A DNA stretch of 64,000 nucleotides from Micavibrio sp. (GCA_002699085.1 PAAR01000004.1:14839-78838); one strand, 5' to 3'. Positions 7,213 to 57,300 are shown, counted from the first letter of the stretch. The notes: a model not told the origin generated them from the letters alone. Translations and numbers: made by a program.

Positions 7213-7222
7213 ACGGCCTCAC

Positions 7223-13251: not shown

Positions 13252-13280
13252 AAAATAAATAACAGATAAGGAGTTAGAGA

Positions 13281-14147: not shown

Positions 14148-14241
14148 CCTTAATCAGGGCTTTTTCTTGCCGTGCTCTTGCCTCATTTAGCTTTCATACT
14201 AAGTGAATGTTAAATAAAGCAACCCTACAAGGAGTTATATT

Positions 14242-14535
14242 ATGAAGTCTATTTTATTACCTGCACTTTCTGCATTTGTTATTACTGCTGCAATTCCGGC
14301 TGTTGCTATGGCTGATATGCACAAAGGTAACCATTACATGGAAAAAGTTGATACAAATAAGGATGGTAAAATTTCTAAGGCTGAATCACAGGCTGCCCAT
14401 GATGCTCGTTTTGAGAAGATGGATACAGATGGCGATGGTTTTGTCACTAAAGAAGAAGGTGAAGCAGCGAAAGCAAAGATGAAAGAAAAATGGAAAGAAA
14501 TGAAAGATAAAAAGGGCGAAATGCCAGTTGAATAA
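14242..14535 (+). CDS. secreted EF-hand calcium-binding protein
   Basis: Signal peptide (…AIPAVAMA) and two canonical EF loops, DTNKDGKISKAE and DTDGDGFVTKEE. AAGGAG SD. Confidence 0.75.
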   Translation: MKSILLPALSAFVITAAIPAVAMADMHKGNHYMEKVDTNKDGKISKAESQAAHDARFEKMDTDGDGFVTKEEGEAAKAKMKEKWKEMKDKKGEMPVE

Positions 14536-14557
14536 TTTTGCTATTGTAACAGATAAT

Positions 14558-14586
14558 AAAAAAGCGCCTTTTTAGGCGCTTTTTTT
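14558..14586. terminator. bidirectional intrinsic terminator between the EF-hand gene and trhO
   Basis: AAAAAAGCGCC-ttttta-GGCGCTTTTTT. The trhO stop codon (14572-14574) lies in the loop. Confidence 0.6.
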
Positions 14587-15459: not shown

Positions 15460-15475
15460 GGAGCAGTATATAGCT

Positions 15476-16366: not shown

Positions 16367-16506
16367 GTATCATATTTATCAATAATTTATAAATCTATCA
16401 ATCGTTTTTATCGATTTCTGGGATAGGGATAATTCATTGGTGTTTTTGTTCAAAATTGTCCATGATCGGCTCGTAAATAAATGTAAATCAGTTAAAGGAG
16501 ATAAAT
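16367..16506. promoter_or_regulatory. divergent promoter/operator region between the OxyR-like gene and ahpC
   Basis: AT-rich 140 bp containing CTAT (16395-16398) and ATAG (16423-16426) half-site-like elements and TATCAAT direct repeats. Only loosely resembles the OxyR ATAG-N7-CTAT pattern. Confidence 0.35.
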
Positions 16507-17076
16507 ATGCTGACTATTGGAGATCTACTACCAGAATTTGAAGTAACAGGCGTTAAGCCAGGCTTTATGAAACATGAAGAAAACGGCGAATCTGCTTTTG
16601 AAACTATCACAAATGAAAGCTTTAAAGATAAGTGGAAAGTAATTTATTTCTATCCAAAAGATTTCACATTTGTATGTCCTACTGAAATAGCTGAGTTTGC
16701 AAAATTGAATAGCGAATTTGCTGATCGTGATTGTGTTGTTCTTGGTGGTTCTACAGATAATGAATTCTGTAAGCTGGCATGGCGTCGTGAACATGCTGAT
16801 CTTAACAAATTAGATCAGTGGAGCTTTGCTGACACAAACGGATCATTGGTTGATGGTTTGGGTGTACGTGAAGAATCAGGTGTTGCTTACCGTGCAACAT
16901 TTATCGTTGACCCGCATAATGTCATTCAGCACGTATCTGTTAACAATTTGAATGTTGGTCGTAGCCCAAAAGAAACATTACGTATTCTTGATGGTCTTCA
17001 AAGCGATGAGCTATGCGCTTGTAACCGTCCAGTTGGCGGCGAAGGCATTGACCTTAAAGCACTAGCAGCTGAATAA
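16507..17076 (+). CDS. ahpC: peroxiredoxin AhpC (AhpD-coupled type)
   Basis: 189 aa with peroxidatic Cys context DFTFVCPTEI. AAAGGAG SD. Followed by ahpD. Confidence 0.9.
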   Translation: MLTIGDLLPEFEVTGVKPGFMKHEENGESAFETITNESFKDKWKVIYFYPKDFTFVCPTEIAEFAKLNSEFADRDCVVLGGSTDNEFCKLAWRREHADLNKLDQWSFADTNGSLVDGLGVREESGVAYRATFIVDPHNVIQHVSVNNLNVGRSPKETLRILDGLQSDELCACNRPVGGEGIDLKALAAE

Positions 17077-36863: not shown

Positions 36864-39014
36864 ATGCCTGATAGTGCAAAAAATACAGAACCAAAAGTTG
36901 ATGCTTCTGCGCCTGATGTGAAGTCAGAGGCCGCAGGCAATGAGGCTGCGCCTGCTACAACAGAAAAAGCAGCTACATCAGCGGCGGTCAATCCAGCAGG
37001 TAAGAAATTGCGCTTGGGTAAAGCTGTTGATGTCTATATGGATAAGCCAATTAAGCGTTTTAAAAATGCTTACGTGCAATGTTTCCAAGCAAAAAATTTA
37101 GGGACTGGGTCAGATCTCATTGCTGTTTTTTGCGATCGCTATTTACCACCACGTTTCAACAAACTTTCACACTTTGAATCAATCCAGCATCCCAATCTGG
37201 TTAGCTTGGTGGAATCTGGTGTCGTTTTGTCACCACTGGATAATAAAGAATATTTTGTTCTGGCTTACGAGGACAATTTAGGTGCACCTCTCGTGGAAGA
37301 GGATATTGGCTGTGCATTGGGTATTAAGCCAGAAGACGCATACACATATATTCTTTTACCGATTATTGAAGTATTGAAAGATATGCGGAATAAGGATTTA
37401 TTCCATGGTACGATCCGCCCTTCTAATATTTTTCGTGGTACAACGCCTGGGTTAAAAAAGATCATTTTAGGCGATTGCATTTCGGTGCCGCCAGGGGTGG
37501 TTCAGGCTTCCATTTTTGAGCCAATTGAGCGTGCGCTGGCGCAACCAACAGGCAAAGGACCGGGTGTTTTGGTGGATGATCTATATGCACTCGGGGTAAC
37601 TATTGCTTTCTTGTTAAGGCCTAAAGATGTGCTGAAAGGCTTAAGTGAGAAAGAAATTATTATTCGTAAGATTGAGTTAGGCACATTTTCTACTGTATTG
37701 GGTGGCGCTAACATCAAAGGTAATCTCGTGGAGTTCTTGCGTGGTGTTTTACAAGATGATCCAAAACAGCGCTGGGATTTGGATGATGTAACGGCGTGGA
37801 TTGATGGTCAGCGTGGTAATATCACAAAGCAGCCAACAAAAGCGGTTAAAGCCAATAGGCCTATTTTAATTGATGGTAAAAAAATATCTTTTCCTGCCGT
37901 TTTGGCGATAGAGGGATTGGAAAAGCCAAATGAATTAGAGGCTTTGCTTGATAATAGAGAGTTGGGCCAATGGATAGAGCGGTCAATTGATGATAAAGCA
38001 ATGCAAAAAGGGATTGAACTGGCTCTTAAATCAACGAAACGTGCTGTCACAAGTAAAAGTAGTATGTATCAATCAAAAATGGTGTCTCGTCTGGCAATGG
38101 TTTTGCACCCTATTGCACCGTTGCGCTATAGAGAGTTTGCTGTATCACCATTAGGCGCAGGGATCGCTTTAGGAGATGCTTATCATGGTGATAAAGATGT
38201 TAGTGTCTATGATGAAATTATTCGTAATGATGAATTTATATTTTGGCTAACCAATAATGAAGGTGCGGCCTGGGACACTAATGCGATGATGTCTGTTTTC
38301 GCATCTTGTCGTGAGTTTGTCTCAACGACTGTGCCAGGCTACGGTTTAGAGCGCTGTCTGTATTACTTAAATGAAAATATTCCGTGTTTAAGTCCTATTT
38401 TAGACGGGTACTATGTGCGGACACCGGAAGAGCTCTTGATTGCACTGGATAAGATCGCCGCTAAGAAGAATAGGGCATATAAGCCATTCGATAGACATAT
38501 TTTGGCTTTTTTATTGGTTAAAGAGCGTAATTTGTTGGAAAACTCGCTTATTGATATCAATTCAAAAGCGTCTTGGCGACAAGTGTTTGGTATTTTGAAA
38601 GTATTTAGCACAATACAGCAGCTCGCAGGTATGGGGGAATTGCCAGGTCTGGCGAATTGGATGTTGGAAATTATGGAGCCAATATATAAAAGATATCACA
38701 ATAGAGAAACGCGTCTTGAGTTGAAAACAAGGTTGCATGAGAAATGCGGTGGTAGTTTAGAAAAAATGTTTAAATATATCGATAACAACGATGTTGTCGC
38801 TAATGATTCTAAACGATTCAAAGAAGCTTTACGTGATTATATTATGCTCGATAAAGAAAGAGATATCTACGAAAGAGGTTTGGAAAACCCTGGTACTGTA
38901 GGTGTGGAAAGGGGGCATCAGGCAGCGGCAGTTTTTTGCGTGATTATTGCGGTCTGTTTGATATTAGGTTTCGTTAGTGTTTCACTTGGCAATCATCAAT
39001 ATTTAGGGTTTTAA
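36864..39014 (+). CDS. tail-anchored protein-kinase-fold protein with degenerate catalytic motifs (predicted pseudokinase), 716 aa
   Basis: Hanks-fold order HPNLVSLVESG / FVLAYEDNLG / FHGTIRPSNIF (HRD replaced by HGT) / ILGDCIS / FEPIERA / DDLYALGVTIAFLL / DPKQRW. No VAIK-type Lys. C-terminal TM helix AAAVFCVIIAVCLILGFVSVSL. Confidence 0.6.
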   Translation: MPDSAKNTEPKVDASAPDVKSEAAGNEAAPATTEKAATSAAVNPAGKKLRLGKAVDVYMDKPIKRFKNAYVQCFQAKNLGTGSDLIAVFCDRYLPPRFNKLSHFESIQHPNLVSLVESGVVLSPLDNKEYFVLAYEDNLGAPLVEEDIGCALGIKPEDAYTYILLPIIEVLKDMRNKDLFHGTIRPSNIFRGTTPGLKKIILGDCISVPPGVVQASIFEPIERALAQPTGKGPGVLVDDLYALGVTIAFLLRPKDVLKGLSEKEIIIRKIELGTFSTVLGGANIKGNLVEFLRGVLQDDPKQRWDLDDVTAWIDGQRGNITKQPTKAVKANRPILIDGKKISFPAVLAIEGLEKPNELEALLDNRELGQWIERSIDDKAMQKGIELALKSTKRAVTSKSSMYQSKMVSRLAMVLHPIAPLRYREFAVSPLGAGIALGDAYHGDKDVSVYDEIIRNDEFIFWLTNNEGAAWDTNAMMSVFASCREFVSTTVPGYGLERCLYYLNENIPCLSPILDGYYVRTPEELLIALDKIAAKKNRAYKPFDRHILAFLLVKERNLLENSLIDINSKASWRQVFGILKVFSTIQQLAGMGELPGLANWMLEIMEPIYKRYHNRETRLELKTRLHEKCGGSLEKMFKYIDNNDVVANDSKRFKEALRDYIMLDKERDIYERGLENPGTVGVERGHQAAAVFCVIIAVCLILGFVSVSLGNHQYLGF

Positions 39015-39021
39015 ATAAGCT

Positions 39022-39582
39022 ATGGCTAAAAAAGTAAAAAAAGTAGCTGTTCCAAAGGCGGGGCGTAAAAAGAAAAAGTCAAAATTGGCTCTACAGTTCA
39101 TTTTTATTATCATTGTTTTTATTATTATGAGCTTATTGTTCTTGCCTACGACTTTTGTGGTGTTTTTTGGAATGATGCCAACATGGGCATTGTTTTCAAT
39201 GGATGGCTCCAAGAATAAGCTCAAAACAGTTGCTGTGGGAGCAATGAATTTAGCGGGTTGTACTTACGTGCTAACAGATTTGTGGGTAACGAGTCATACA
39301 TTGCCCTATGCGATTAGTTTGCTTTTAAAGCCGTCTAGTATGATTGCTATCTATTTGATGGCGATGGCTGGTTTCGTTCTGCAACGTGTTATTTTGGGTA
39401 TCGTTTCTTCAATGATGCTGCAGCAAGCACGGGCTAAAATAAAAATTATTTTGCGTCGTCAGGATGAGTTAAAAGCGAAATGGGGGCCAGAAGTGACAGG
39501 TACTATTCCGCTTGATATGGACGGTTTTCCCTTAAAGGATGTGCCCGATCAACCAGCGGTTGCATCAACACCAGCCGCTTAA
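39022..39582 (+). CDS. small polytopic membrane protein with a Lys-rich N-terminus (186 aa)
   Basis: MAKKVKKVAVPKAGRKKKKSK followed by about four hydrophobic helices. Starts 7 nt after the pseudokinase stop. Confidence 0.5.
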   Translation: MAKKVKKVAVPKAGRKKKKSKLALQFIFIIIVFIIMSLLFLPTTFVVFFGMMPTWALFSMDGSKNKLKTVAVGAMNLAGCTYVLTDLWVTSHTLPYAISLLLKPSSMIAIYLMAMAGFVLQRVILGIVSSMMLQQARAKIKIILRRQDELKAKWGPEVTGTIPLDMDGFPLKDVPDQPAVASTPAA

Positions 39583-40502
39583 AACTGAATGTCGAAATAA
39601 TAACGATAATTTGGATTTGTTGCAGAAGGCGGTATGAATTTAAACGGGATTAAGGCCCGACCTTGTTTCTTTAATTGGATAGCGATGATATTTTTTCCGT
39701 CTTGCGCAGTTACAGAAGCGTCACTTACAGCACTGCTTTTCTTGATTTGCTGCAACATGCTAGGTGAAACGGGTGCACCATTTGTTTCAATCGTTACAAG
39801 GTTCTCTTGGCTATCAAAAAGAGCTGTATTTTGCAATTTTTCTGAAGCATCAAAAACGACCCGCATAGAACTGTTAGAGACTGAGAGACGGATATCTTTT
39901 AGTGAACCAGATTTCGCAGGGGCAATCGTTTGAGGCTTGATATCAAGTGGTTTATTTTGTGCGGTATTCTCGACAGGTGTCTGCTCGGCATTTTGTTGAA
40001 CTGTCTGTGTTGATGCTGGGGCTTCTGTAAGAGTTTTTAATTGCGTGACAAGCTCGCCAATGTCTTTTTCAATATTGATGAGGCGGTTAAGAGAAGGACG
40101 CATTTCATCAAATTCATTACGGAAGTTTTGGACGGCATTTTCAAGTCGTGTAAAGCGCTCATTGTTATTGCTAATATCTTCAATGAATAGTGTTTTATTA
40201 TTGTCGCTACCTATTGCGCTAGCACTGTTATAATTGGCAGTTGCTTGTGGTTTTGGGAAGTCAGTTGAGGGTGTTGCAAGATCTTTTATATCATAGTCAG
40301 TTTCATTGCCAATAGTCGTTAATGTGCCACTGCGTGCTTGAGGACTCGTCTGTTTTACTTGTTTATTTTTACTAAACATAGTGGGCATAGAAAGCCCGCA
40401 GCCTGATAGCAGCATGCTATAGCTTAATAGTGCTCCTATAAAAGCAAGGCGGAGCCGCTTGGAAAGCAGCTTTTTGCTAGGCTTTTTGTCTGTTAAAACC
40501 AT
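39579..40502 (-). CDS. lipoprotein with a coiled-coil segment and a C-terminal AMIN-like domain (307 aa)
   Basis: Lipobox MLLSGC. FTRLENAVQNFRNEFDEMRPSLNRLINIEKDIGELVTQLKTL looks coiled-coil. SLKDIRLSVSNSSMRVVFDASEKLQNTALFDSQENLVTIE resembles AMIN. Confidence 0.45.
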   Translation of the reverse strand: MVLTDKKPSKKLLSKRLRLAFIGALLSYSMLLSGCGLSMPTMFSKNKQVKQTSPQARSGTLTTIGNETDYDIKDLATPSTDFPKPQATANYNSASAIGSDNNKTLFIEDISNNNERFTRLENAVQNFRNEFDEMRPSLNRLINIEKDIGELVTQLKTLTEAPASTQTVQQNAEQTPVENTAQNKPLDIKPQTIAPAKSGSLKDIRLSVSNSSMRVVFDASEKLQNTALFDSQENLVTIETNGAPVSPSMLQQIKKSSAVSDASVTAQDGKNIIAIQLKKQGRALIPFKFIPPSATNPNYRYYFDIQF

Positions 40503-40604
40503 GTATGTTTACGCTCTCAGAACCAAGATATAGATTAATCCTATATTATGGTAGTTGACCCGCCGACTCAGGTCAACAAAGCATGTGTTGTCTTATAACA
40601 AGAA

Positions 40605-41090
40605 TTAAAAATTAATAATAAGGTCGTAATCTGTGTCGTAATGGCCATTATTGTATATAGCACCTCCACTTAGTGAAGTTAGGCGGGCCATAACATTAAA
40701 GGTATCTGTTCCTGCGGCATTTGTTTGCAATGTATTAGGTCGTATGCGGATATTATCAATCGTAAAATCTGCGCCAGGTCCTGTAAGGACTGTGCTTGGT
40801 GCAAATGTGATTGTGTATGGTGAGTTTGCAGGTCCGCCAGTCAATGTAAACTCGCCTCTTGTGGGTGCGATGTAAATAATGGTGTTGGGGTTAGCTGTGT
40901 ATCCACCATTATTTTGGATATTAATACGGAGTGTCGTATTGAAGCTTTTAAAACCAAAAGTACCAAAACTGAGGTCTTGGGTCTGTGTAATGATGACCTG
41001 TGCTTGTGCGGATAAAGAAATTGTTATCGCAATAAAAATGCTTACAAAGACAAGAGCGATATTATTCTTTTTGCAGAACAATTTCATCAT
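40605..41090 (-). CDS. DUF4402-like fimbrial subunit (minor or second subunit)
   Basis: Start trimmed to MMKLFCKKNNIALVFVSIFIAITISLSAQA (signal peptide). LSFGTFGF motif just after the cleavage site and a C-terminal aromatic (…DLIINF). Overlaps the chaperone stop. Confidence 0.55.
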   Translation of the reverse strand: MMKLFCKKNNIALVFVSIFIAITISLSAQAQVIITQTQDLSFGTFGFKSFNTTLRINIQNNGGYTANPNTIIYIAPTRGEFTLTGGPANSPYTITFAPSTVLTGPGADFTIDNIRIRPNTLQTNAAGTDTFNVMARLTSLSGGAIYNNGHYDTDYDLIINF

Positions 41091-41871
41091 ACAAAGTTCC
41101 ATTATCTGTGTCTGTATAGCTAAGACGTAATTCACCTTTGCCTACAGGCATTTCATCTAGTGTAATAGTCCCTGTGCGCTCATTAATTTCATCAAATAAA
41201 TTGAAATTTGTCACAAAACCAATGTTTTTCCAGTCACCGCCTTGAGGGCGCCATGCTACGTCGATACGCCCCAATGTGCTGGCGCTACCAGATCTTACAG
41301 CTTTAAACGTAACTTCTGGCTTTTTACTCTTTGTTTCACTTGGCGTTTTGAGCAGAATGTCTTCAAGCTTACCTGAGGCAGATAACTCACCTTGCCTAAC
41401 GATAACGGGGATTGATATGCCTAGATTAATACCAAGTCCAACTGATACTTTACCGCTCTCAGTATCTGCTTTTTGAGGTTGTTTTTCTGCAATAGCTAAA
41501 AGGTGGAAGCGATATTCACCATCTGGCAAATCAGCGGGACGTCTCAAAGAAAGGCGAACCTTTTGCTTACCCATAGGCGGAAGAGTAAATGTTTTCGGTG
41601 ACATTCTGAGGACCTCAATCGGGTTAAATAACGGCGAGAGAGGCTCTTCTAAGGTAGTATAGGCGCCGACTGTATCTTGTTTGTAATTGATTGTTTTGAG
41701 TGTGTAGGTTTCTTCTTTGTCTGAAAGATTTAATACGGTTATTTCACCAGATCTCTCACGGTTTTCTATAACGACCATGCGCGGAATAATATCAACGCGT
41801 GCAAAGGCGGTGCTTGTTACAAAAAACGTTAACAATAAAATAAAAAAAGCTATTACATTCGAGCGCATCAT
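41062..41871 (-). CDS. periplasmic fimbrial chaperone (PapD-like Ig fold)
   Basis: Signal peptide MMRSNVIAFFILLLTFFVTSTAFA, then IIPRMVVIENRERSGEITVLNLSDKEETYTL and RMSPKTFTLPPMGKQKVRLSLRRPADLPDGEYRFHL, typical of chaperone strands. Start is ambiguous (GTG 41895, ATG 41880/41871/41868). Confidence 0.6.
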   Translation of the reverse strand: MMRSNVIAFFILLLTFFVTSTAFARVDIIPRMVVIENRERSGEITVLNLSDKEETYTLKTINYKQDTVGAYTTLEEPLSPLFNPIEVLRMSPKTFTLPPMGKQKVRLSLRRPADLPDGEYRFHLLAIAEKQPQKADTESGKVSVGLGINLGISIPVIVRQGELSASGKLEDILLKTPSETKSKKPEVTFKAVRSGSASTLGRIDVAWRPQGGDWKNIGFVTNFNLFDEINERTGTITLDEMPVGKGELRLSYTDTDNGTLYDEIVLQKE

Positions 41872-41901
41872 ATCCTCCATAGATCGTACACTCACTATAA
41901 C

Positions 41902-41933
41902 CGAAAAAAGCCCCGCTGCAAGAGCGGGGCTTT
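41902..41933 (-). terminator. intrinsic terminator between the major-subunit gene and the chaperone gene
   Basis: Minus strand reads AAAGCCCCGCT-cttgc-AGCGGGGCTTT followed by TTTTTCGG. Confidence 0.6.
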
Positions 41934-41964
41934 AACAATATATTTAAGAAAATGAAATTAATAA

Positions 41965-42531
41965 TTAGTAAGAAACAACTACGTCAACTGTACCAGCGAA
42001 CGTACCATCTGTTAGCTGTGTTGCTTGAACTGGTGTTGTTAGTGTCGCACCAATTTCATATGTATCTAAAGCTGTTGCTGTGTATGGGATCGGTGTACCA
42101 AGCGTTACTGCCGCACTACCTGCACCATTAATATCAACAGTAAACGCACTCATTGCCAACGTATCTGTACCATCTGTTGGGTTGATAAGGTTGTTCATTG
42201 TAAAGTTGATTGTTGCGCCTGTAACACCAGCAGCAGATACTTCAGCAGCTGTTGGTGAGCCAGAAGCTTGCGCTACTAGGGCAGGTGCACCACCTGTCGC
42301 AAATGAAATAGAGTCATCTGTTGCAATTGTTGCAGATGCAGAGTTTGCGTTGTCTGTTATGGCAATTAATGTACCAAAATCAAGTGGTGTCACTTGTGTT
42401 AACGTGATCGAGTTAGCAACATCAGCTGTAATGTTAACAGTTAATGTATCTGCTGCATCTGATGTCGTTGCAAACAAGGCAACCGTGGCTGCCGTTAATG
42501 TTAGGTATTTTAGTGTTTTTGTAAGTTTCAT
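41965..42531 (-). CDS. DUF4402-like major fimbrial subunit (188 aa)
   Basis: Signal peptide …ALFATTSDA. Ala/Thr/Gly-rich mature protein with LDFGTLIAI near the N-terminus and a …VDVVVSY C-terminus. Strong SD GAAGGAG 7 nt before the ATG. Followed by a terminator hairpin. Confidence 0.6.
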   Translation of the reverse strand: MKLTKTLKYLTLTAATVALFATTSDAADTLTVNITADVANSITLTQVTPLDFGTLIAITDNANSASATIATDDSISFATGGAPALVAQASGSPTAAEVSAAGVTGATINFTMNNLINPTDGTDTLAMSAFTVDINGAGSAAVTLGTPIPYTATALDTYEIGATLTTPVQATQLTDGTFAGTVDVVVSY

Positions 42532-42687
42532 TTTTTGGCTCCTTCAAAAAAGTCAGTTAGTGTGTTAAAAATTAATGTATAGTATCATAATTAAGAATAT
42601 CGCCAAATAGTTAATTGAATCTTAAAAAACATAATTTAAATAAAATTTTATTTAAACTTTTACAGAGGGATAGACATCGTAAAGCAG

Positions 42688-45600
42688 ATGAGGTTTTTCA
42701 AGAGAAATACATGCTTTCTAGTGTTGCTTTGTTTGAGTTTACAGGCTTGTCCAAACACTGCTTGGGCACAAGAAATAGCAGATTTAAGGTCTCTAGCTAG
42801 TAGTTTTGTGCAAAAACTATCACCTCAATATAAGGATCTTCAGGCACAAAAAGATGCTTTGGATCAAATTCCTGAGGGTTCGTCACTGCTATTGCGCCCT
42901 AGATCGGAAAAAGTCGTATTTGATGGTGAAATATATTCTTTCAAGCGTAATAACGCTATATATATGGCGTTAGAAGATTTTATTGAATTATTAGAGTTCA
43001 ATGTAGGTTTTGATAATAGTACATTAAAAGGGAGTGGCTGGTTTTTGCGCGAAGACTGGCATATTGATATTGATATTCCCCATAAAAAAGTTGTATCTCG
43101 TGGCGTTACTTACAATATTGATTCGGCGAATATTTTTGAAGAAGATGGTATTGTTTTTGTTAAAGACACAACGCTAGCCAAGTGGTTTGGGTTAAGCTTT
43201 GACTACGATATAGAGCAGCAGTTCATTGATATTGAGAGCGCATATCCGCTGCCGTCGGTTGCGCGTAATTTACGACAAACAAAAGGACCTGGCAGCATAT
43301 CAACGCTTAATGAGCCTGTTTTGCCTAGATTGGAACAGGAAAAGCAGCTGTTTGATTTAAATGTTGCTGATGTAAGTTTGGGTACATCAATGACGAAACA
43401 GTCATCAGGTGATGCACTTAACCGCCAATACGGAAATGTGACTGTAGAAGGTGAGCTCTTAAAACATAATGCCTATGTTTTTTCAGCGGCAGATAGCGAT
43501 AATAATTTATCCTCTGTTGTCGCTCGATTATCTAAAAGATCAGAAGATCCAGATTTATTGGGGCCTTTAAATGCTCGTTCATATGCTATTGGAGATATTG
43601 AACAAACTGATATGCCCTTAACAGGTAACACATCACAAGATTTAGGATTTCGGTTTGATAACAATCCGCTGGAGAACACTGATTTTGCTACGACAAATAT
43701 TGTCGGTGATGGCTTACCTGGTTGGGATGTCGAGCTTTACCGAGAAGGCATATTATTAGATACGCTGACGATAGATAATGATGGCCGTTATGAATTTAAT
43801 AATGTGCAATTATTCCTTGATGACAACACTTTTGAACTATTCTTTTATGGTCCTCAAGGTGAGATACGTAGTGAAGAGATTCAGGTGCCTGTAACAGCCG
43901 ATTTATTAAGAACACAGGATAAAACCTATGAGTTTTCTGTTTCTTTTGAGGATACTCAAACATTTGAAAACACGCTTACGCCAGATCAGGATCAAGGAGC
44001 TATGCATGTTGCAGGACGCTATAATAAACTTCTCGGTGATGAAACCTTAGGTTATGTCGGGTTTCGGTCACGTCAGGTAGGTGGCGAACGTAAAGATTTT
44101 TTAAGCTCAGGTATTTCGACAATTGTTGGGCAAACTATTCTGGATACCAACTTTGCTGTTGATGAAGATGCCAGTATTGCTGGAGAAGCTTTGCTGCGAC
44201 AAAATATTGATGACTGGAACTTATCTTTGCGTGCCAAAGCAAATTCAGATGGATTTGCACCTGATGACATCACTGACCCTCTTATCAGAGAATTTAACTT
44301 CAGTGCGTCAAAGCCTTTGGGTAAAGATGGGAATGGTATAAAAGGTAATGTATTGTTGAATGCATTACATCAAGAAACAGTAGCAGGTAGTATGCTTGAT
44401 TCCGTTGACGCTGGGTTCAGTCAGCAGTTTAACCGTACTAATCTGTCTCATCGACTTACCTATGAGAATAGCGATATTGTCGGCGGTGTTGATAATGAAG
44501 ATGTCGATTATACACTGTCTGCACGGCGTATTATAGGGCCAATGTTTACGAGATTTGGGGCAACATATAATATTACGCCAGATTCAGAATTAGAGAGCTT
44601 ATTTGGCCAAGTTAATTATCGTTACAATAGTAAATTTTCAACGGATGTTTCTTTGCAGCATCAATTAGATAATGAATTAACAACAGGGCGTTTAAACTTA
44701 AATTATATTGGTGATAAGATAAGAACATCCCCCTTTGTTGAGATGAATTCAGATGACCGTATATATGCAGGTGTAAACCTTAATTTCTCGTTGATTGATC
44801 CTGCATACGAAGATACACCCATTGTAACCAGTCGTAGACAAATTGGTCGAGGGTTGGTGTCAGCACATGTGTTCTTGGATAAGAATGGCAATCTTATTTT
44901 TGATGAAGGAGATGAACCTATTAAAAATGCAACCGTTGAAAGTGTTAATACACGCCGAAGTGACATTACAAATGCGCAGGGTTATACAACGTTAAAAGAG
45001 CTGACCACCACTCGTCCAACTGATATTCGTCTTGTTGCAGACACATTACCTGATCCGTTTATGATACCAGCCTTTGAGGGTCGCTCAATTTTTCCAGAAG
45101 CGGGTAGCATGATTAAGATGGAGTTCCCTGTTCATATGTCAGGAGAGCTTGATGGTGCAGTATATTATTTATCGGAGACAGGTAGTAAACAAACATCAAG
45201 CTATCATGGTATTACGCTAACTTCGCTAGATCATCCTGACCGTAAGGTGTTTGAAGCAAGATCAGAAACAGATGGATATTACTTGATGTATTTATTGCCT
45301 CCTGGTCGGTATCTTTTAAATACCGAACCTAAAAGCAGAGCGGGTAAATCATTAGGCAACACCACGCCTCAGATCGTTACGATTGGCTATGAAGGCACAA
45401 TCTTAAGTAATCAGGATATCCAAGTTACTGTAGGGCAGCCTTATATTCCTTATGAAATTCATTTTGCTGAAGGTGCAGCAAAATATGCCGATGCGCAGCA
45501 ATATACATTAAAAGTGAAGCGAAAAGGGGCGTCTAAATTATCTGAACTTATTAGTGGTCTGTTGAGTAAAAGGCTTAATAAATCAATGATTAAGGATTTA

Positions 45601-45765
45601 ACACGCATTGCTGATAAAAAGACAGAAGACGGTGTATATGAGCAATACACAGATAGTGATCTTCAAAAATTACATCATGCATGCGTAGAAATAAAACAGA
45701 CAGGCATTACGTGTGCTATTGAAGTTTTTGTACCTGCAGCAAATCAAGAAGTTGCGTTACGTTAA
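42688..45765 (+). CDS. fimbrial outer-membrane usher-like protein with extra C-terminal Ig/CarboxypepD_reg-like domains (1,025 aa)
   Basis: Signal peptide. GWDVELYREGILLDTLTIDNDGRYEFNNVQLFLDDNTFELFFYGPQGEIRSEE resembles the usher plug/middle-domain pattern. Long beta-rich middle part. VFLDKNGNLIFDEGDEPIKNATVES resembles a CarboxypepD_reg-like unit. Divergent from the subunit-chaperone operon. Confidence 0.5.
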   Translation: MRFFKRNTCFLVLLCLSLQACPNTAWAQEIADLRSLASSFVQKLSPQYKDLQAQKDALDQIPEGSSLLLRPRSEKVVFDGEIYSFKRNNAIYMALEDFIELLEFNVGFDNSTLKGSGWFLREDWHIDIDIPHKKVVSRGVTYNIDSANIFEEDGIVFVKDTTLAKWFGLSFDYDIEQQFIDIESAYPLPSVARNLRQTKGPGSISTLNEPVLPRLEQEKQLFDLNVADVSLGTSMTKQSSGDALNRQYGNVTVEGELLKHNAYVFSAADSDNNLSSVVARLSKRSEDPDLLGPLNARSYAIGDIEQTDMPLTGNTSQDLGFRFDNNPLENTDFATTNIVGDGLPGWDVELYREGILLDTLTIDNDGRYEFNNVQLFLDDNTFELFFYGPQGEIRSEEIQVPVTADLLRTQDKTYEFSVSFEDTQTFENTLTPDQDQGAMHVAGRYNKLLGDETLGYVGFRSRQVGGERKDFLSSGISTIVGQTILDTNFAVDEDASIAGEALLRQNIDDWNLSLRAKANSDGFAPDDITDPLIREFNFSASKPLGKDGNGIKGNVLLNALHQETVAGSMLDSVDAGFSQQFNRTNLSHRLTYENSDIVGGVDNEDVDYTLSARRIIGPMFTRFGATYNITPDSELESLFGQVNYRYNSKFSTDVSLQHQLDNELTTGRLNLNYIGDKIRTSPFVEMNSDDRIYAGVNLNFSLIDPAYEDTPIVTSRRQIGRGLVSAHVFLDKNGNLIFDEGDEPIKNATVESVNTRRSDITNAQGYTTLKELTTTRPTDIRLVADTLPDPFMIPAFEGRSIFPEAGSMIKMEFPVHMSGELDGAVYYLSETGSKQTSSYHGITLTSLDHPDRKVFEARSETDGYYLMYLLPPGRYLLNTEPKSRAGKSLGNTTPQIVTIGYEGTILSNQDIQVTVGQPYIPYEIHFAEGAAKYADAQQYTLKVKRKGASKLSELISGLLSKRLNKSMIKDLTRIADKKTEDGVYEQYTDSDLQKLHHACVEIKQTGITCAIEVFVPAANQEVALR

Positions 45766-48700
45766 GCGGGTTCAGGTGTTTTTTCGTGGACTGGATTATA
45801 TTTGCGCTGAGGGTGCGCAACATTTCTCATGTTGTCGTCAATCTCACCCAGGTGTTTATTGCTTTTCATCCATCTTTTTATTTCATTAAATAAAGCTTTT
45901 TTCTTTGTGCTGCGGCCAATAAAATGTGCATATCTTTCTGGTTCGGATTCAATAGCGTCTATTTCACGCATTGCCTGATGGTATTGGTAAAAGGAGATGT
46001 AACGACGCATTTGCAAAATTTCATTTTGATCGTCTGTTGTTAGGTCTTTTTTACAGATATCGTAATGCACATTATTAATAGTGATGGCTGCAGTCTCTAA
46101 TAAAGGTCTATATTTCATTATCTCTTTATAAAGAGTAGATGCTTCTTTCTTATTATCGTCCGTAATCGCACTAACATATTGACTTAAAAGTTTTGTGATT
46201 CTTTTATAACCAGTATTGGTGTTGCCAGCGCGGATCTGTCCAAGTTTAGCTATGCCTTGTTCTGCGCGCGGTCCTTTTTTCTTGATTGGCCATAAAGGCT
46301 TATCAAGTATAGGAAATTCAGGTTGTTCAAGACTTCGGAAAAATTGATCTTTGTTGCCCTCATTTGTTTCCGATATTTTATTAGATAAGGTTTTCCAATT
46401 GTCATCGGGGTCAATAAAATTACGATATTGTTTAACGATACCTGCTCGGTAATCTAACGTTTCTCTTGATAGTCCTGCATTGGCATTGACGACAAAGCCA
46501 AATTTCGCAGGCATAACAATAGGATTTTTCTTCATATCAATGATTTCAAAAACATCATCTTTACGGTCATCAGCCATGGCAAGAATTTTTTCAGCAGGCA
46601 AGCTCATATATTTATAAGGATCATATTTCAGATTAAAGACAACGGCATATTGGTCATCTTTCATTGTTGCAACCAAACAACCCATTTTCGGTATGGGCTG
46701 CAAGGCAGAAGGGCTGACATAAGAAAAGACAGGATGCGGGCCATTAAAACCTGTGGCCATACCCATCATATCGTTTAGTAAATGATAATTACTACTATCG
46801 GCATTAATCACCATCTGCCCAACAATTTCTGGTGAGATATCATATTGCTTCCAAAATAGTTTTAAGCAGAGCTGAGTATCAGCCAATGCACCATGCAAAT
46901 TACGGCTGTTATATTTGATGTTCATTGCATCGCAAAGGGCACTTAAACGGTGATCGTCAAGCCCTGAGGGTGATTTGTGTGGTTTGTATTTTTGCGGTGC
47001 GAAAGCAGCCAATGCACGTGATATATTACGAGTGTCTATGCCAATAATGCCATAAGTCTCAAACGGTTTTAAACGAGCGTGTAAATTGCGACCTAGTTCT
47101 TTTTCAATCATACGTTGATCGAAGGGTTTGTTATGTGCGGCAACAATAACTTTCATTCTGTTTTTTGCTGTAACAAGCTCTGGTTCTTTGGTGGATTTTT
47201 TTAACGCCAATTGTTGTGAATTTATACGCAAATCATCAACAGCATCGTTAAATGCTTGGGTAAAGCTTGCAGGCGTCAAACCTTGTGAGAAATCTTTGTA
47301 TGTCAGTCCTGTTATAAGCATCGCCTCAGGTGACGGCACAATATAATCAGGTATTTGCTGTTTAACAATTTTTGTATCAATTGTTTTGCGGGTTTCGCTG
47401 TTTTGTAGAATAAGCCCTAATTCATAGATCCGATGTTCAGGCGCTTCTTTGCCTGTGGTTTCTGTGTCTAGCCCAGTAACTATATGAATTTCTTTATCTT
47501 CAAAAACAGTTGATTTCTTGTAACGCTCGATACCAAAAGGAAAATCTTGTGTGAGATAGCCATTACCAGAAAGAACATTGAAACGTGGTGATAGAAAGAA
47601 AGGGAGACTACTTGCTAATGCATTTTCAGAGGTAAATCCTGCATCTCTTAAAACAGCATTCTCAAACCGTTCTATAAGTTTTCCAGCTACGGTAAAAGGA
47701 TCTGGCTTCACGCCAATAACGATTGTTGAGAAACGACCTTTTAACCAAAATTTATTAGCGGGGGCGTGTGATTTTATACCGATAAAGCTAGAGGGTTCAG
47801 TTCCAGTTACTTCAGCATTTTTACCTTTCTTAATACGAATGCGTGCATTATGTACAGCACGCATAGTCTGTGCACCGACCTTTTCAGCTAAGAGCATATG
47901 TGCGTTGATTTGTGCTGGAGAACCATGTGCAGGAATTGTAAAAGGCTTTCCAGATTCAATAATGGTTTCCATACAACCGTCTTCGGAAGAGTGACCAGAG
48001 CCGTGTCGAATAGTAAGCTCACCTGCTTTTGCGATGGCTTCTGGCATATAAACTTTGGCACCATGGAATATTTCTATATCAATCTTAGAATCTGCTCTTT
48101 GCCATTTGTTGTTACCAACGGGGATTACACCTTGTAAGTAACAAACAACATCTAAATCATTGAGGCGAAACTTATCATTCACATCACGGACCAGCTTATT
48201 CATAGCTGATTGTGGTTCATCTTGTGTACCTGTTGCGAGGATGGCATAACGCTCGGCGCCTTCACCTTTAAGGAGCTTTTTCGCTTTTTTCTGGCTGTCC
48301 ATCAGGATTGTCACGCCCATTCGTTTTGCCCATTCTTTTAACGCATGGGCCTTATCGGCATCACGGACCAGATCTTGTACGGCCTTGCCGCTGATGATTA
48401 ATGTGTTGCAATCTGTTTGCGCAAGAGCGTGTATTGTGGTGGCAAGGCGTGTAATGTTTGACCCTAGCATAGGGAAAATCATTCTTTGTCCCGCATGAGC
48501 TTCTACTATGTTGATGATATCTTCTTCGACTTCTAATTCTGTAGGATTGCGTTCTGTCCTATTAGCGCCTGTAGAATCTGCCGTCATGACATCTGGTTCA
48601 AAGCCACGCAACCATGTGTTTAGATCGGGAAGTCCCAGACGATTAGCAGGATCACGACTGTAATCCCCTGTATGCCTTAATGAACCAGCAGGTGTTATGA

Positions 48701-50402
48701 GATCATACATTTGCCCTGGGTCAGAGTGAGGCATAGGACCAACACGGATTTTAAATGAGCCGATTTGTAAGACTGGATAATGTTCACTTTTACCGAGCTC
48801 TTTGCTGGGTAAAGTTTCTGTCCATTGCTCTATGGTAACATCATCAATAACAGTTTTTTTGCGCTTTTCTGGATCAGAAGGATTTACATCCTTGAGCATA
48901 TTAATTGTATAGCATTTTTCTAATATCTCTTCTTGAATAGACTTCTCTATTTTTAGTTCACGCATTTTGCGCTTGAGGCTAAGAAAGGTCATTTCATTCA
49001 TAATGAGCGGTGGTAATTTGTAACCCGCCTTAATCAGATAAGGGAGTTGTCCTAAATGGTCTTCATGTTTATGGGTAATAAGAATGAAATCTACGGGTGT
49101 TTCGGGTATGTGATTTTTATCAAACTTATGATGTAAAAATCTGCTCGCATTATAAAATGCAATGTCAAAAACATCATGGAACAGGACACCAGCATCAATC
49201 ATGGCGGCTTCAACTTTAATAGAGCCATCTGCTTGTACTGAACGATATGTGATGCCGTATTGATTGCCCCCAATGTTCAGGTCGTGGTCAGAGGTCAATC
49301 GACGGGAAGGATTTCCGCCAATGATTACCAAATCCATTATGCCTTGTTTTGGAATTTTCATGGGTTGGTTTAGATATTGATGTGCCTGCGTGTGAAGCAT
49401 TAACTCCGATGGCAATGCATATTTACGATTGTAAGATTTGGCCGCCAAATCTTCGATAAGTGCTTTATCGCCAGCCCGAACGGTACGATTTATATTCCTT
49501 ATAACTTTTAGGATGGTAGAAACAGCATGAGAATCTTTTAAGTCAATTTTTCGTCCTTCATATATGAGAGAGCTTATTTTGACTTGCTTGGGTTTACCTT
49601 TAACGGGTGTTGTTTTTATTTCGTATAATGTTTCTGTTTTTTCTTCATGCGTCTCTTCATTTAGAACGGATATTAATCCAGTAATATGAAGATGTGCAGG
49701 TGTTTTGCCTTGCGTATATGTGTATTCAAGGGTTGAGAAACTGTCATTGCCTTCTTTTCCATGGTGGCTAAGGACGTTATGAATTGGTTTGCCGACATAG
49801 TTATAATGCTCTGGCGCAACACCTAAAAGAGCAGGCATAAAAAAAGCCGAAAAAATGGGGTTTTCAGCTGATCTATTAAAGTTTTTTAGCGCATTAAGGT
49901 TTCGTTTTATATCGCCATTTGCATAAAGTGCTGGCCATGCTTTGCGGCCAATATTCTGTTTTATAAGATTGTGCTCTTGAAGCAATTCAATAGGGTTAAC
50001 CCATTCATTATGGCGCCCTACTTTGTCAAAAAAGTCTTTGCAGAGTCTTTCAAGTTTTTTTGTGTGCTCAGGGAGCGTAATGTCTAATGCTTCTAGTATG
50101 TCACCGGCCCGTATTTTCGCTTCGGTAATTTTTATGCGCCCATCTTCATTTTCTGCGCACTCCATGTCGAAGAAATGGATATGTTGATTGTCTGCATTGT
50201 TTTCATGCACATCATAACTACAGCGGAGGCGATAGCCTGCCTCAGTACGGGTAATTTCAAAAACAAGCGCACGGATCGTGCCGGTCTCAGAATCGGTGAG
50301 GATTGTGAAATGGCGAGACTCGCCTGTCTTCTCTAAGTTTGATAGCGTTTCTTCTATACCAAACCTAGAAAAGAAGTGCTCTTTTCTATAGCTTATGCTC
50401 AT
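45762..50402 (-). CDS. 1,546-aa fusion protein: unassigned N-terminal ~350 aa, RNase J-like metallo-beta-lactamase/beta-CASP nuclease, Exonuclease I-like DEDDh exonuclease, basic C-terminal tail
   Basis: MBL motif ILITHKHEDHLGQLPYL (49056-49073) preceded by LVIIGGN and IDAGVLFHD. Beta-CASP-like MTADSTGA, HGSGHSSEDG and TIPAHGSP. DEDDh motifs GLDTETTG (47451-47474), AAHNKPFDQRMI and LHGALAD (46878-46898). The downstream region has an ExoI C-domain layout. Confidence 0.7.
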   Translation of the reverse strand: MSISYRKEHFFSRFGIEETLSNLEKTGESRHFTILTDSETGTIRALVFEITRTEAGYRLRCSYDVHENNADNQHIHFFDMECAENEDGRIKITEAKIRAGDILEALDITLPEHTKKLERLCKDFFDKVGRHNEWVNPIELLQEHNLIKQNIGRKAWPALYANGDIKRNLNALKNFNRSAENPIFSAFFMPALLGVAPEHYNYVGKPIHNVLSHHGKEGNDSFSTLEYTYTQGKTPAHLHITGLISVLNEETHEEKTETLYEIKTTPVKGKPKQVKISSLIYEGRKIDLKDSHAVSTILKVIRNINRTVRAGDKALIEDLAAKSYNRKYALPSELMLHTQAHQYLNQPMKIPKQGIMDLVIIGGNPSRRLTSDHDLNIGGNQYGITYRSVQADGSIKVEAAMIDAGVLFHDVFDIAFYNASRFLHHKFDKNHIPETPVDFILITHKHEDHLGQLPYLIKAGYKLPPLIMNEMTFLSLKRKMRELKIEKSIQEEILEKCYTINMLKDVNPSDPEKRKKTVIDDVTIEQWTETLPSKELGKSEHYPVLQIGSFKIRVGPMPHSDPGQMYDLITPAGSLRHTGDYSRDPANRLGLPDLNTWLRGFEPDVMTADSTGANRTERNPTELEVEEDIINIVEAHAGQRMIFPMLGSNITRLATTIHALAQTDCNTLIISGKAVQDLVRDADKAHALKEWAKRMGVTILMDSQKKAKKLLKGEGAERYAILATGTQDEPQSAMNKLVRDVNDKFRLNDLDVVCYLQGVIPVGNNKWQRADSKIDIEIFHGAKVYMPEAIAKAGELTIRHGSGHSSEDGCMETIIESGKPFTIPAHGSPAQINAHMLLAEKVGAQTMRAVHNARIRIKKGKNAEVTGTEPSSFIGIKSHAPANKFWLKGRFSTIVIGVKPDPFTVAGKLIERFENAVLRDAGFTSENALASSLPFFLSPRFNVLSGNGYLTQDFPFGIERYKKSTVFEDKEIHIVTGLDTETTGKEAPEHRIYELGLILQNSETRKTIDTKIVKQQIPDYIVPSPEAMLITGLTYKDFSQGLTPASFTQAFNDAVDDLRINSQQLALKKSTKEPELVTAKNRMKVIVAAHNKPFDQRMIEKELGRNLHARLKPFETYGIIGIDTRNISRALAAFAPQKYKPHKSPSGLDDHRLSALCDAMNIKYNSRNLHGALADTQLCLKLFWKQYDISPEIVGQMVINADSSNYHLLNDMMGMATGFNGPHPVFSYVSPSALQPIPKMGCLVATMKDDQYAVVFNLKYDPYKYMSLPAEKILAMADDRKDDVFEIIDMKKNPIVMPAKFGFVVNANAGLSRETLDYRAGIVKQYRNFIDPDDNWKTLSNKISETNEGNKDQFFRSLEQPEFPILDKPLWPIKKKGPRAEQGIAKLGQIRAGNTNTGYKRITKLLSQYVSAITDDNKKEASTLYKEIMKYRPLLETAAITINNVHYDICKKDLTTDDQNEILQMRRYISFYQYHQAMREIDAIESEPERYAHFIGRSTKKKALFNEIKRWMKSNKHLGEIDDNMRNVAHPQRKYNPVHEKTPEPA

Positions 50403-54370: not shown

Positions 54371-57300
54371 TCAAGTTTCGGTTTGTAGAGCTTCTCTTAA
54401 CTCGGTCTGACGACGTTGTTGATATGTTAATGTATCTTCAAATTCATCGTATAAATCTCGATAAGCAGCCGTTTCAGTATCGTTTTGAGCGTTTGATTCG
54501 TTGTTATTAGCAGTCTTTTGATCGTTCTCTGCACTCATTTCTTTAAGAGCACTTAGGATATCACGGACAGTTTTGCCTTGTGGCAGTGTATGAACCTCAG
54601 TGCTTTCATTATTCGGTGTATTGTTTTCCGTCGTTTCATCTGATTGTGTCGTCAAATTTGAGTTAAAGACAACAAAATTAGAACGGTTATCTAGCATGTT
54701 TTGCATCTCAAATGTCGTATTGGCACGGATAATTTGTCCAATTCCATCTGAGCCGTAGAATGCATTTATTTGATCTGAAGCGTTACCCGTAATAAAGCTT
54801 TGAATAAGACCGTTTGAGCTGTAGTCACGATCTTCTTCTATTTTATGACCTAAATAGCCGTCTCTTGAACTATTCGGTCTATCTTGGGGAATTGTGTTTA
54901 GTGTTAGCTCGCTTGCATCTTCGATATCAATAACAAAAACCTTGTCAAAAGTACCGCCATTACCGTCATCAGTGCGGATTGTTACGCTGTGCTGCGTGGC
55001 AGTTTCGTAGTCAGCCTCTGCATTAAGCAATAATTTATTACCACTGATGAGGAACATATTATCTGGGTCAGATATGATGGTGTAAGTGAAGCTATCACTT
55101 GGTACATCAACATCATTCGTGCCTAATGTGGCAATAACATCACCAATTTCGCCCAGTTCTGAAATGCTTGTGGCGTCTGCGGTAATATCTGTTGGTGCAT
55201 CGTTTACATTAATACGAGATAGAGCAAAACTCGCAGTAGCTGCGACAGCGCCATTTTCGCCGCCATCAGCAAGTGATATATCAAAGCTACCGTCCATTTC
55301 AGAACCATCATGGATGAAATCTACACGGTTATTGTTAATGTCGTCTTGCGTGAAGGTGTTTTGTGCGACACCGCTTACTTCTATTGTGCCGTGGCTCAAA
55401 TTAGAGGCCGTGTAAGTGACATCTGTGGCTATGTCATCGCTATCGGCCATATTAAGCATGGTTGATGTAATCGTTTTTGTTCCGCCTTCAAGCACTGTTG
55501 TTCCAGTGTTTACTGTAATAGTAGGGGCATCATTGATGGGGTCTACAACCATATCAAAACGCCCTGTGCTTGCCACGACACTGTCTTCGCCGCCATCTAT
55601 GACGGATATATCAAAGCCTGCAGAAGATGTTTCTGAGCCATCATGTAAGAAGCTTACCAAGCCTGCATTAAGATCTGTTTGTGTGAAAGTGTTTTGCGTG
55701 ACGCCATTTACTTGAAGTACGCCATTTGAAAGGTTACTTGCTGTGAATGTAAGACCTGCATCAGAATCGTCATCATCCGATACATTGAGTTTTGCAGGAT
55801 CAATAACGACAGATTGCCCTTCATTAACTCTTAATTCGGCATTATTTTCAAATAAAACAAGATTTCTAAAGGAGGCGTCATTGGCGGCACTCGCATCATC
55901 ATCCGCAAAGAATGTCATATAGTTGAAATTGCCAGTAAAGAATGTACCGACTGCAATATCGTAGTGCACCCAGCCATCGCCAACATTATAGGTGTTAAAT
56001 GTTTTATTGGTCGGGGCGTAGCTTAGTTGGTCGCCCAAGAACTGGAAGGCAGATTGAATAGTACCGTCATTATCAACGTCAAAACCAAGACCTTGTACTT
56101 CACCTTCATCCGTTGCCAAGAAATCAAAGCTAAGGATTGTATCTGCTGTTATTGTGTAAGGTAGGTTAATCTTTTTCCAAGGATTACCGTTTAGTGTAAG
56201 TGTGTAGCCGTCTGGACTAATAGTCGCTGTACCAGAATCCTGACCACCCCAATAACCACTGACTGTGTAATCATTAAAGTTTACGCCGACTGTATTACCA
56301 TTTGAAATAATAAGATTTGGTGCGTCATTCACAGGCGTTACTGTAATAGCGAAAGAGTCTGTATCAGCAGAAACACTATTCTCGCCGCCATCGGCTAATG
56401 AGAGATCAAAGCCTGCCGAGGTTGTTTCAGAACCGTCATGGATGAAGACCACACGGTTATTGTTGATATCATCTTGCGTGAAAGTATTTTGTGCTACGCC
56501 ACTGACTTCGATCACACCGTTTGATAGGTTTGAGGCTGTATACGTGACATCGGTGTCAGCATCATCAACATCAGACATATCGAGCATAGCACTGGTAATT
56601 GTTTGGCTCGCCCCTTCATTTATTGTAACGCCTGTATTCACTGTAATGCTTGGCGCTTCGTTAATTGGTGTGACAGTAATGGCAAAAGAGCCAGTATCAG
56701 CAGCGGCACTATTCTCACCACCATCGGCTAATGAAATATCAAAGCCTGCCGAGGTTGTTTCAGAACCGTCATGGATGAACACCACACGGTTATTGTTGAT
56801 ATCATCTTGCGTGAAGGTGTTCTGCGCTACGCCACTGACTTCGATCACACCGTTTGATAGGTTTGATGCTGTATAAGTGACATCGGTGTCAGCATCATCA
56901 ACATCAGACATATCGAGTATGCTGCTTGTGATTGTAACACTTGCTGCCTCATCAATTGTTACACCTGTATTTGTAATAATAGTCGGTGCTTCATTGACTG
57001 GTGTGACAGTAATGGCGAAAGAGCCTGTGTCCGCCGCTGCGCTATCCTCGCCACCATCGGCTAATGAGAGATCAAAGCCAGCTGAAATGGTTTCACTATC
57101 ATCATGGATAAACACAACACGGTTATTGTTGATATCATCTTGCGTGAAGGTGTTCTGCGCTACGCCACTGACTTCAATTATACCATTAGACAGGTTTGAT
57201 GCTGTGTAGGTGACGTCTGTTGCGGCATCGTCAGCATCTGTGAGATTAAGCATTGCTGATGTTACAGTGAGGCTCGCCCCTTCATTCATCGTAGCGCCTG

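Follow-up and report, generated by a model that had tools for sequence, protein, structure and literature searches.

Can a group of genes encode a chaperone-usher pilus when its would-be usher and pilins escape the sequence families by which such systems are recognised? This question is raised by a locus in a stretch of 64,000 nucleotides from the marine bacterium Micavibrio sp. (GCA_002699085.1, PAAR01000004.1:14839-78838), which was analysed as a whole and is referred to here as the window. Two small secreted proteins, a chaperone encoded between them and a 1,025-residue protein encoded on the other strand had been proposed to form a chaperone-usher-type fimbrial locus. A check of the open reading frames (ORFs) in the window found these four genes where they had been placed, and the locus extends further left, to position 39579, which takes in a fifth conserved gene. 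We consider it very probable that the locus is a complete chaperone-usher fibre-assembly system, belonging to a deep, unclassified branch and built on DUF4402 pilins. It fits the structural definition of the pathway and falls outside the sequence definitions of the Usher family and of the spore coat protein U (SCPU)/sigma subunits. The features of the locus are as follows.

39579-40502, minus strand: accessory lipoprotein, 307 residues, lipobox LLSGC
40605-41090, minus strand: subunit A, minor DUF4402 subunit, 161-residue precursor, probable start ATGATG at 41090
41062-41868, minus strand: PapD-like chaperone, 268 residues, probable start ATG at 41868, downstream of GGAGGA
41907-41933, minus strand: intrinsic terminator or attenuator 3' of the major-subunit gene, strong hairpin AAAGCCCCGCTCTTGCAGCGGGGCTTT followed by a T-run
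41965-42531, minus strand: subunit C, predicted major (polymerising) DUF4402 subunit, 188 residues
42409-42453, minus strand: N-terminal extension of mature subunit C, 15 residues, ADTLTVNITADVANS, predicted donor strand
42532-42687, no strand: divergent intergenic spacer between the subunit C and usher genes, 156 bp, AT-rich (24% GC)
42688-45765, plus strand: usher-like protein, 1,025 residues, signal peptide

The longest ORFs of the chaperone (41062-41895, minus strand, 277 residues) and of subunit A (40605-41135, minus strand, 176 residues) start upstream of the probable start codons listed here, and the probable start of subunit A overlaps the end of the chaperone gene by 29 nt. Sec-type export signals are visible in all five proteins, in the form of signal peptides and one lipobox. 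The GC content of the locus is that of its flanks, and it is surrounded by housekeeping genes, purA, glmM, ftsH and ileS among them, indicating that this is a core chromosomal locus.

Predicted architecture of the 1,025-residue protein

The 1,025-residue protein gave no match to the Pfam Usher family (PF00577) at E ≤ 1, and its only Pfam similarities were sub-threshold, to CarboxypepD_reg (residues 738-774) and SdrD_B (residues 341-374). A total of 284 relatives was found in the protein database, and the statements on their names and domains rest on the best 120 of these. PF00577 was absent from all 120, and those with a name carried hypothetical, generic domain or 'sporulation' labels only. 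An AlphaFold2 (AF2) model, built on 62 relatives, had a predicted local distance difference test (pLDDT) score of 87.8 and a predicted template modelling (pTM) score of 0.71. The following parts were assigned in this model, with the strand count taken from DSSP.

42883-43239, plus strand: N-terminal periplasmic domain, residues 66-184, compact alpha/beta fold with pLDDT >90, ahead of the barrel
43351-44796, plus strand: 24-strand beta-barrel, residues 222-703, consisting of 6 strands (222-324), the plug and 18 strands (413-703)
43690-43893, plus strand: plug beta-sandwich, residues 335-402, inserted between barrel strands 6 and 7
44851-45468, plus strand: C-terminal domains 1 and 2, residues 722-830 and 834-927, both beta-sandwiches
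45499-45735, plus strand: additional C-terminal domain, residues 938-1016, beta-alpha-beta-beta-alpha-beta, tentatively SPOR-like

When the model was compared with the Protein Data Bank (PDB) using Foldseek, the 18 best matches were all FimD or PapC (E 1.8e-29 to 5e-14), headed by FimD 3rfz_B (E 1.8e-29) and PapC 7lhg_C (E 1.1e-22), and the best non-usher match followed at E 1.5e-10. The barrel matched the FimD/PapC translocation domains 3ohn and 2vqi with E-values of 4.6e-16 to 4e-15. Profile alignment with hhalign to four Escherichia coli ushers (FimD, HtrE, EcpC and SfmD) reached a probability of 83.8% (E 7.8e-6); the register was kept along the barrel and C-terminal domain 1, and residues 720-826 were paired with the C-terminal-domain region of the E. 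coli ushers. According to the model, the 1,025-residue protein has exactly the domain plan of FimD and PapC, and is an usher by structure though not by sequence. Although no usher hidden Markov model (HMM) is matched, structure prediction thus yields the usher-like barrel and plug whose absence would have refuted the original prediction.

The segment that had been singled out as plug-like in the original prediction (GWDVELYREG..., residues ~345-376) lies inside the modelled plug beta-sandwich. PGWDVELY is the most conserved motif of the family, and G340, P344, W346, D347, E349, L350 and Y351 are among its invariant or near-invariant positions. By analogy with FimD, we infer that the N-terminal domain docks chaperone-subunit complexes. 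The C-terminal units that had been described as extra and Ig/CarboxypepD_reg-like turned out not to be extra, because the AF2 model, with its FimD/PapC plan, identifies them as the two canonical usher C-terminal domains; the real addition is formed by residues 938-1016. This last alpha/beta domain, together with an N-terminal helical segment, makes up much of the excess length of the protein, which is ~150 residues longer than FimD (878 residues, from the fimD coordinates). It contains a conserved Cys-x9-Cys motif, of which C999 and C1009 are nearly invariant.

A remote chaperone and two classes of DUF4402 subunit

The match of the window chaperone to PapD_N was sub-threshold (Pfam, E 0.07). 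We found 112 relatives, several of which are named PapD or fimbrial chaperone by the Joint Genome Institute (JGI), under the label 'P pilus assembly chaperone PapD', and 23 of the 43 aligned family members match PapD_N at E ≤ 0.01 (best 2.3e-6). The family profile aligned with that of five E. coli chaperones at a probability of 92.6% (hhalign, E 4.4e-7), which placed the sequence LPDGEYR on the LPxDRE motif of the E. coli proteins. E-Y-R and IPV(I)VRxG are invariant across the family, and the column matching FimC Arg8 contains Arg or Lys in 34 of the 43 members. We assigned GLGINLGISIPVIV as strand G1, and as read from the sequence, a loop of ~16 residues separates it from the strand assigned as F1. 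Judged by these comparisons, the 277-residue protein is a remote PapD-type chaperone, and the proposal that a PapD-like chaperone is encoded between the two subunits (41062-41868) was borne out.

The description of these subunits as small secreted proteins with FGT motifs and aromatic C-termini was also correct: subunit C has a signal peptide, an LDFGT motif and the C-terminal end ...VVSY, and subunit A has an LSFGT motif and ends in ...IINF. Subunit A matches DUF4402 (PF14352) with 42.4 bits, against a cut-off of 25.2 (E 1.3e-10). Subunit C itself has no Pfam match, but a relative that is 82% identical carries PF14352, and DUF4402 is matched by 58 of its 96 relatives (best 2.6e-22), drawn from a library of 1.84 billion proteins, in agreement with the DUF4402-like nature that had been assigned to both proteins. 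A metagenome-assembled genome (MAG) of Micavibrio sp. contains a protein 100% identical to subunit C, which is recorded as hypothetical. A BLASTP comparison of subunit A with subunit C was not significant (E 0.27), so that the homology of the two appears only with profiles. Iterated searches started from either subunit reached the same set of ORFs, and hhalign aligned the major and minor subunit families with a probability of 99.2% (E 6.6e-20), with a gap of 15 residues in the minor class, immediately behind the signal peptide.

In the AF2 model of subunit C (pLDDT 91.5), residues 27-42 are unstructured and are followed by a beta-sandwich. The top PDB matches of this model were nearly all chaperone-usher pilins, with CsuA/B first (E 1.2e-3), followed by PapE, the Csu pilus (7zl4), CsuE, FimF/G, PapA and Caf1. 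The similarity is weak but consistent, and the model thereby supports a pilin-like subunit C that is closest to archaic pilins, which does not prove membership of that clade. It agrees with the original prediction that the small proteins would have a pilin-type fold. The N-terminal extension ADTLTVNITADVANS shows the pattern expected of a donor strand, with hydrophobic residues (L, V, I, A and V) alternating along it, and is likely the donor strand of subunit C. It is present in the usher-adjacent subunit class and absent from the other class, and mature subunit A begins directly at the first core strand. Over 59 loci, the median distance from the cleavage site, as predicted by a simple heuristic, to the L-x-FG motif was 26 residues in the major class versus 10 in the minor class. 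A minor subunit that lacks a donor strand can only accept one, and the logic of the pathway therefore places it at the distal tip. Hence, the minor subunit is predicted to be the tip or initiator, without a separate adhesin domain. The original prediction had found no recognisable tip adhesin gene, which holds in so far as a separate adhesin domain is lacking, but a candidate tip subunit can be recognised in the minor DUF4402 protein without extension.

Aside from these two classes, one related locus encodes a minor-class subunit of 336 residues (L021:3624-4634, minus strand), with the FG motif at the usual N-terminal position and ~180 extra C-terminal residues. Three library proteins of ~340 residues (P0369, P0372 and P0385) contain two DUF4402 stretches each. 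Such proteins may be tip subunits with two domains, or tandem subunits, that occur in part of the family.

Conservation, expression signals and accessory domains

A scan for the usher motif in one genome per species yielded 394 relatives among 185,579 genomes. Carriers include alpha-, beta-, gamma- and deltaproteobacteria, as well as plasmids of cultured strains. Among the cultured carriers are Thalassomonas actiniarum, Sphingopyxis indica MC4, Polaromonas sp. E5S, Pseudoalteromonas xiamenensis and M. aeruginosavorus ARL-13. The best 80 of the 394 are mostly Micavibrio-like or unclassified alphaproteobacterial MAGs, and a few are labelled Bdellovibrionales/Pseudobdellovibrionaceae, Desulfobacterales, Thalassomonas or Colwellia. 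In at least 59 loci, the chaperone and usher genes form a cluster with one or more subunit genes. The order found among related loci is L-s-C-s | U (L, lipoprotein; s, subunit; C, chaperone; U, usher), and the gene order of the window is repeated in 12 loci; in 23 others the pair of minor subunit and chaperone genes is located on the opposite strand. The major-subunit gene is always divergent from the usher gene in the 59 related loci, thus the divergent usher arrangement noticed in the window is real and conserved. A collinear order, subunit(s)-chaperone-usher, occurs in Thalassomonas, Colwellia, Polaromonas and Sphingopyxis, and the Sphingopyxis operon has a single subunit gene. On the plasmids of cultured strains, the genes are labelled 'DUF4402 domain-containing protein', 'molecular chaperone' and 'carboxypeptidase regulatory-like domain-containing protein', thus the NCBI pipeline has only a loose name for the chaperone and fails to recognise the usher. 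A tblastn search of plasmids with subunit A gave no match.

Two of the plasmid loci, L084 on pMC4 of Sphingopyxis indica and L085 on pE5SP1 of Polaromonas sp. E5S, have collinear operons with usher homologues of ~895 residues. Their similarity to the window usher stops at residue 918, and the last C-terminal domain is apparently missing. Plasmid pMC4 was typed as conjugative and pE5SP1 as non-mobilizable. Some genomes hold the whole five-gene cluster twice: the clusters L020 and L021 belong to the same MAG, and locus L016 contains two copies back to back, in inverted orientation (about 3478-10230 and 10230-16770).

The expression signals that had been claimed for the first subunit gene, a strong Shine-Dalgarno sequence and a terminator of its own, are both present. 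The Shine-Dalgarno sequence GAAGGAG (42545-42539, minus strand) lies 7 nt ahead of the ATG of subunit C, and the terminator (41933-41907) lies ~35 nt before the start of the chaperone gene. Of 59 related loci, 50 have a terminator-like hairpin with T-run behind the major-subunit gene, versus 1 of 59 shuffled controls. In the window, the gap from the terminator to the chaperone gene is too short to hold a promoter, so that partial read-through is likely, by which the major subunit would likely be made in abundance and the chaperone and tip subunit sparingly. In the pap system, a stem-loop after the major pilin gene sets the stoichiometry. An Rfam search of positions 39000-46500 gave no match. 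The divergent spacers of the related loci were also examined for an operator common to all of them; none was found, and the palindromes present were clade-specific. The spacer in the window contains a perfect palindrome of 22 nt, TTTAAATAAAATTTTATTTAAA (42635-42656), and a different one, ACTGATACTCAGT, recurs in the same spacer of five related loci (L037, L039, L059, L062 and L068). These palindromes may be operators, and that of the window could be a product of chance in AT-rich sequence.

The fifth gene encodes a lipoprotein of 307 residues with a canonical lipobox, LLSGC, in which C35 is nearly invariant, and a coiled-coil-like segment. It is homologous to the equivalent neighbour in locus L002 (E 2e-21), and a gene of this family lies beside the cluster in most alphaproteobacterial loci. 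The window lipoprotein itself did not match AMIN (PF11741) at E ≤ 0.01, but 23 of 44 family members do (best 8.2e-8), and at the level of the family the C-terminal domain is AMIN. In Thalassomonas, the operon is flanked by SPOR-domain proteins instead of the lipoprotein, and the C-terminal end of the usher-family HMM matches these SPOR proteins with E-values of 6.5e-7 to 4e-4. The Thalassomonas usher homologue P0099 shows a Pfam SPOR (PF05036) match below threshold (E 0.0081), and the Desulfobacter homologue P0094 carries clear additional SPOR repeats. The secondary structure of usher residues 938-1016 in the AF2 model fits the SPOR fold. The sequence of the window usher gave no SPOR match, and an usher profile based on alphaproteobacteria only is weakly similar to SPOR (E 0.001 over 27 positions), so that the assignment of the last domain as SPOR-like stays tentative. 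If it is SPOR-like, the pilus platform might be anchored or positioned on peptidoglycan by this domain and the AMIN-family lipoprotein, which is speculative. In the association of AMIN and SPOR domains with an outer-membrane pore for pilus export, the locus resembles the type IV secretin PilQ, which has AMIN domains, and SPOR-domain division proteins. In PilQ, the AMIN domains direct polar placement through septal peptidoglycan. The differences are that the system described here is of the chaperone-usher and not of the type IV kind, that AMIN is located on a separate lipoprotein, and that the SPOR-like assignment is tentative.

Alternative readings and a model of fibre assembly

As outlined above, predicted structures, conserved gene order and family-level profile matches point to a chaperone-usher system. 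Several observations weigh against this. No Pfam or NCBIfam model for usher, PapD_C or SCPU was reached at curated thresholds, an NCBIfam search gave no match for any gene of the locus, and searches of PDB sequences with the usher, the chaperone and both subunits, using sequences as well as profiles, retrieved no significant usher, chaperone or pilin. The structural similarity of subunit C to pilins is weak (best E 1.2e-3, TM about 0.5). At the column of FimC Arg8 the window chaperone has a Met, with an Arg one residue earlier, and an equivalent of FimC Lys112 could not be mapped. The locus contains neither a two-domain adhesin nor a terminator subunit, and the fibre itself is a prediction from genes and modelled structures.

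If the locus does encode a chaperone-usher system, it could be a divergent member of the archaic (sigma) clade, to which Csu, CupE and the Myxococcus spore-coat-U system belong, and not a separate branch. In structure the major subunit is closest to CsuA/B, with 7zl4 and CsuE also near the top, and we take the L-x-FG motif near the mature N-terminus to resemble that of SCPU-type pilins, which would favour this explanation. However, none of the 96 relatives of subunit C matched SCPU (PF05229) at E ≤ 0.01, and subunits A and C gave no SCPU match at E ≤ 1. Moreover, the usher lacks a PF00577 match, which sigma ushers such as CsuD presumably do have, and the chaperone profile failed to retrieve CsuC from the PDB sequences, even at E ≤ 1. 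Membership of the sigma clade is therefore unlikely in our view, and the system probably represents a separate deep branch. Of the earlier suggestion of an archaic chaperone-usher branch, the weak similarity to CsuA/B is the sole basis left, and no SCPU or Usher profile is matched.

Csu of Acinetobacter baumannii and CupE of Pseudomonas aeruginosa share with the locus small beta-sandwich pilins with an N-terminal donor strand (predicted here), a PapD-type chaperone, an outer-membrane usher and a wide occurrence in environmental bacteria. They differ in that the subunits described here are DUF4402 and not SCPU proteins, that the usher lies outside PF00577 and has an extra C-terminal alpha/beta domain, that an AMIN-family lipoprotein is present, and that in the Micavibrio-like clade the usher gene is oriented divergently from those of the subunits; in addition, one pilin domain makes up the whole of the predicted tip subunit, unlike the two-domain CsuE. 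With type 1 (FimA-H/FimC/FimD) and P (Pap) pili, the locus has in common the usher architecture, domain by domain, the motif in the N-domain of the chaperone and a tip subunit without donor strand (predicted here). In contrast to these pili, the locus lacks a lectin-domain adhesin as well as adaptor and terminator subunits, PapD_C is not matched, and the usher is only 10-13% identical to FimD and PapC in structural alignments.

Another explanation is that chaperone-usher-like machinery produces an amorphous or capsule-like polymer or coat, comparable to Caf1/F1 antigen or the Myxococcus spore coat protein U. The lack of an adhesin domain and the single subunit gene in the Sphingopyxis operon would fit such a product, as would the ~16-residue F1-G1 loop of the chaperone; chaperones that build thin polyadhesive fibres have a long F1-G1 loop. 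However, a dedicated second subunit that has no donor strand is conserved, which favours a fibre of ordered build and definite tip, and we consider a polymer or coat improbable. This subunit is the only computed feature that tells the two apart. Finally, it is barely credible that the 1,025-residue protein is an unrelated plugged barrel (porin, TonB-dependent-like or LptD-like) and the small proteins unrelated periplasmic Ig-like proteins, even though there is no usher profile match at curated thresholds and the NCBI pipeline labels relatives 'carboxypeptidase regulatory-like domain-containing protein', since porins, TonB-dependent receptors and LptD scored E 2.5e-7 or worse in the Foldseek comparison against 1e-29 for ushers, strand number, plug position and the two C-terminal domains match ushers exactly, and synteny with PapD-like and pilin-like genes is tight and broad.

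For the chaperone-usher fibre that we favour, assembly could proceed as follows. The five proteins would be exported by Sec, after which the PapD-like chaperone would cap the incomplete Ig-like fold of each DUF4402 subunit in the periplasm. Chaperone-subunit complexes would dock on the N-terminal domain of the usher, the plug would leave the 24-strand barrel and the fibre would thread outward, a function proposed for a modelled fold. The minor subunit, being an acceptor only, would enter first and end up at the distal tip, and the major subunit would polymerise by donor-strand exchange via its 15-residue extension. The strong Shine-Dalgarno sequence and the terminator would keep the major subunit in excess of the chaperone and tip subunit. 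More speculatively, the SPOR-like domain of the usher and the AMIN-family lipoprotein might tie the platform to peptidoglycan, perhaps at the pole or former septum, and in a Micavibrio-like epibiotic predator the fibre might serve in attachment to surfaces or prey.

To our knowledge, the classification of chaperone-usher fimbriae into alpha, beta, gamma, kappa, pi and sigma was built from proteins that match the usher profile. The DUF4402-type usher family misses the profile on which this classification rests, yet it is common. It is conceivable, and we put it forward only tentatively, that DUF4402 systems are a seventh deep chaperone-usher branch that usher-profile censuses have missed, in which the usher of the Micavibrio clade is fused to a peptidoglycan-binding SPOR-like domain and accompanied by an AMIN lipoprotein, with the platform fixed, for example, at the pole and used for prey attachment. 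In the library searched, full-text queries found no mention of DUF4402 (PF14352, IPR025514), and nothing relevant was found for usher in combination with 'carboxypeptidase regulatory', SPOR domain or Micavibrio. In the genome paper of M. aeruginosavorus, type IV and Flp pili are the only pili considered, with no mention of ushers or fimbriae (PMC3189940). Recognition of the family would enlarge the known diversity of the chaperone-usher pathway, give DUF4402 a function and correct a systematic annotation error, the 'carboxypeptidase regulatory-like' usher. It would also point to a candidate surface fibre by which Micavibrio-type predators might attach, and peptidoglycan-binding modules fused to or associated with ushers would, if true, be new for ushers.

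Several other genes in the window deserve mention. Further along the window, a protein of 2,589 residues (54371-62140, minus strand) contains 12 Cadherin_3 stretches (E 2.8e-235) and cadherin, Big_9 and C-type lectin domains, and is by its domain content a giant repeat adhesin. It adjoins a gene for a 562-residue protein with peptidase M50 and HlyD-like domains (62216-63904, minus strand), and this pair could be a second attachment system in a predator-like genome. The gene that is convergent with the usher gene (45762-50402, minus strand), with stop regions overlapping by 4 nt, encodes a protein of 1,546 residues in which an RNase J beta-CASP domain (639-765) and an RNase T-type exonuclease (978-1183) form an unusual fusion. 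Just beyond the lipoprotein gene lie genes for a 716-residue protein (36864-39014, plus strand), which has no more than faint similarity to protein kinases and LanL-like proteins (Pkinase, E 0.021; lanthi_synth_IV, E 1.6e-4), and for a hydrophobic protein of 186 residues without a family match (39022-39582, plus strand).

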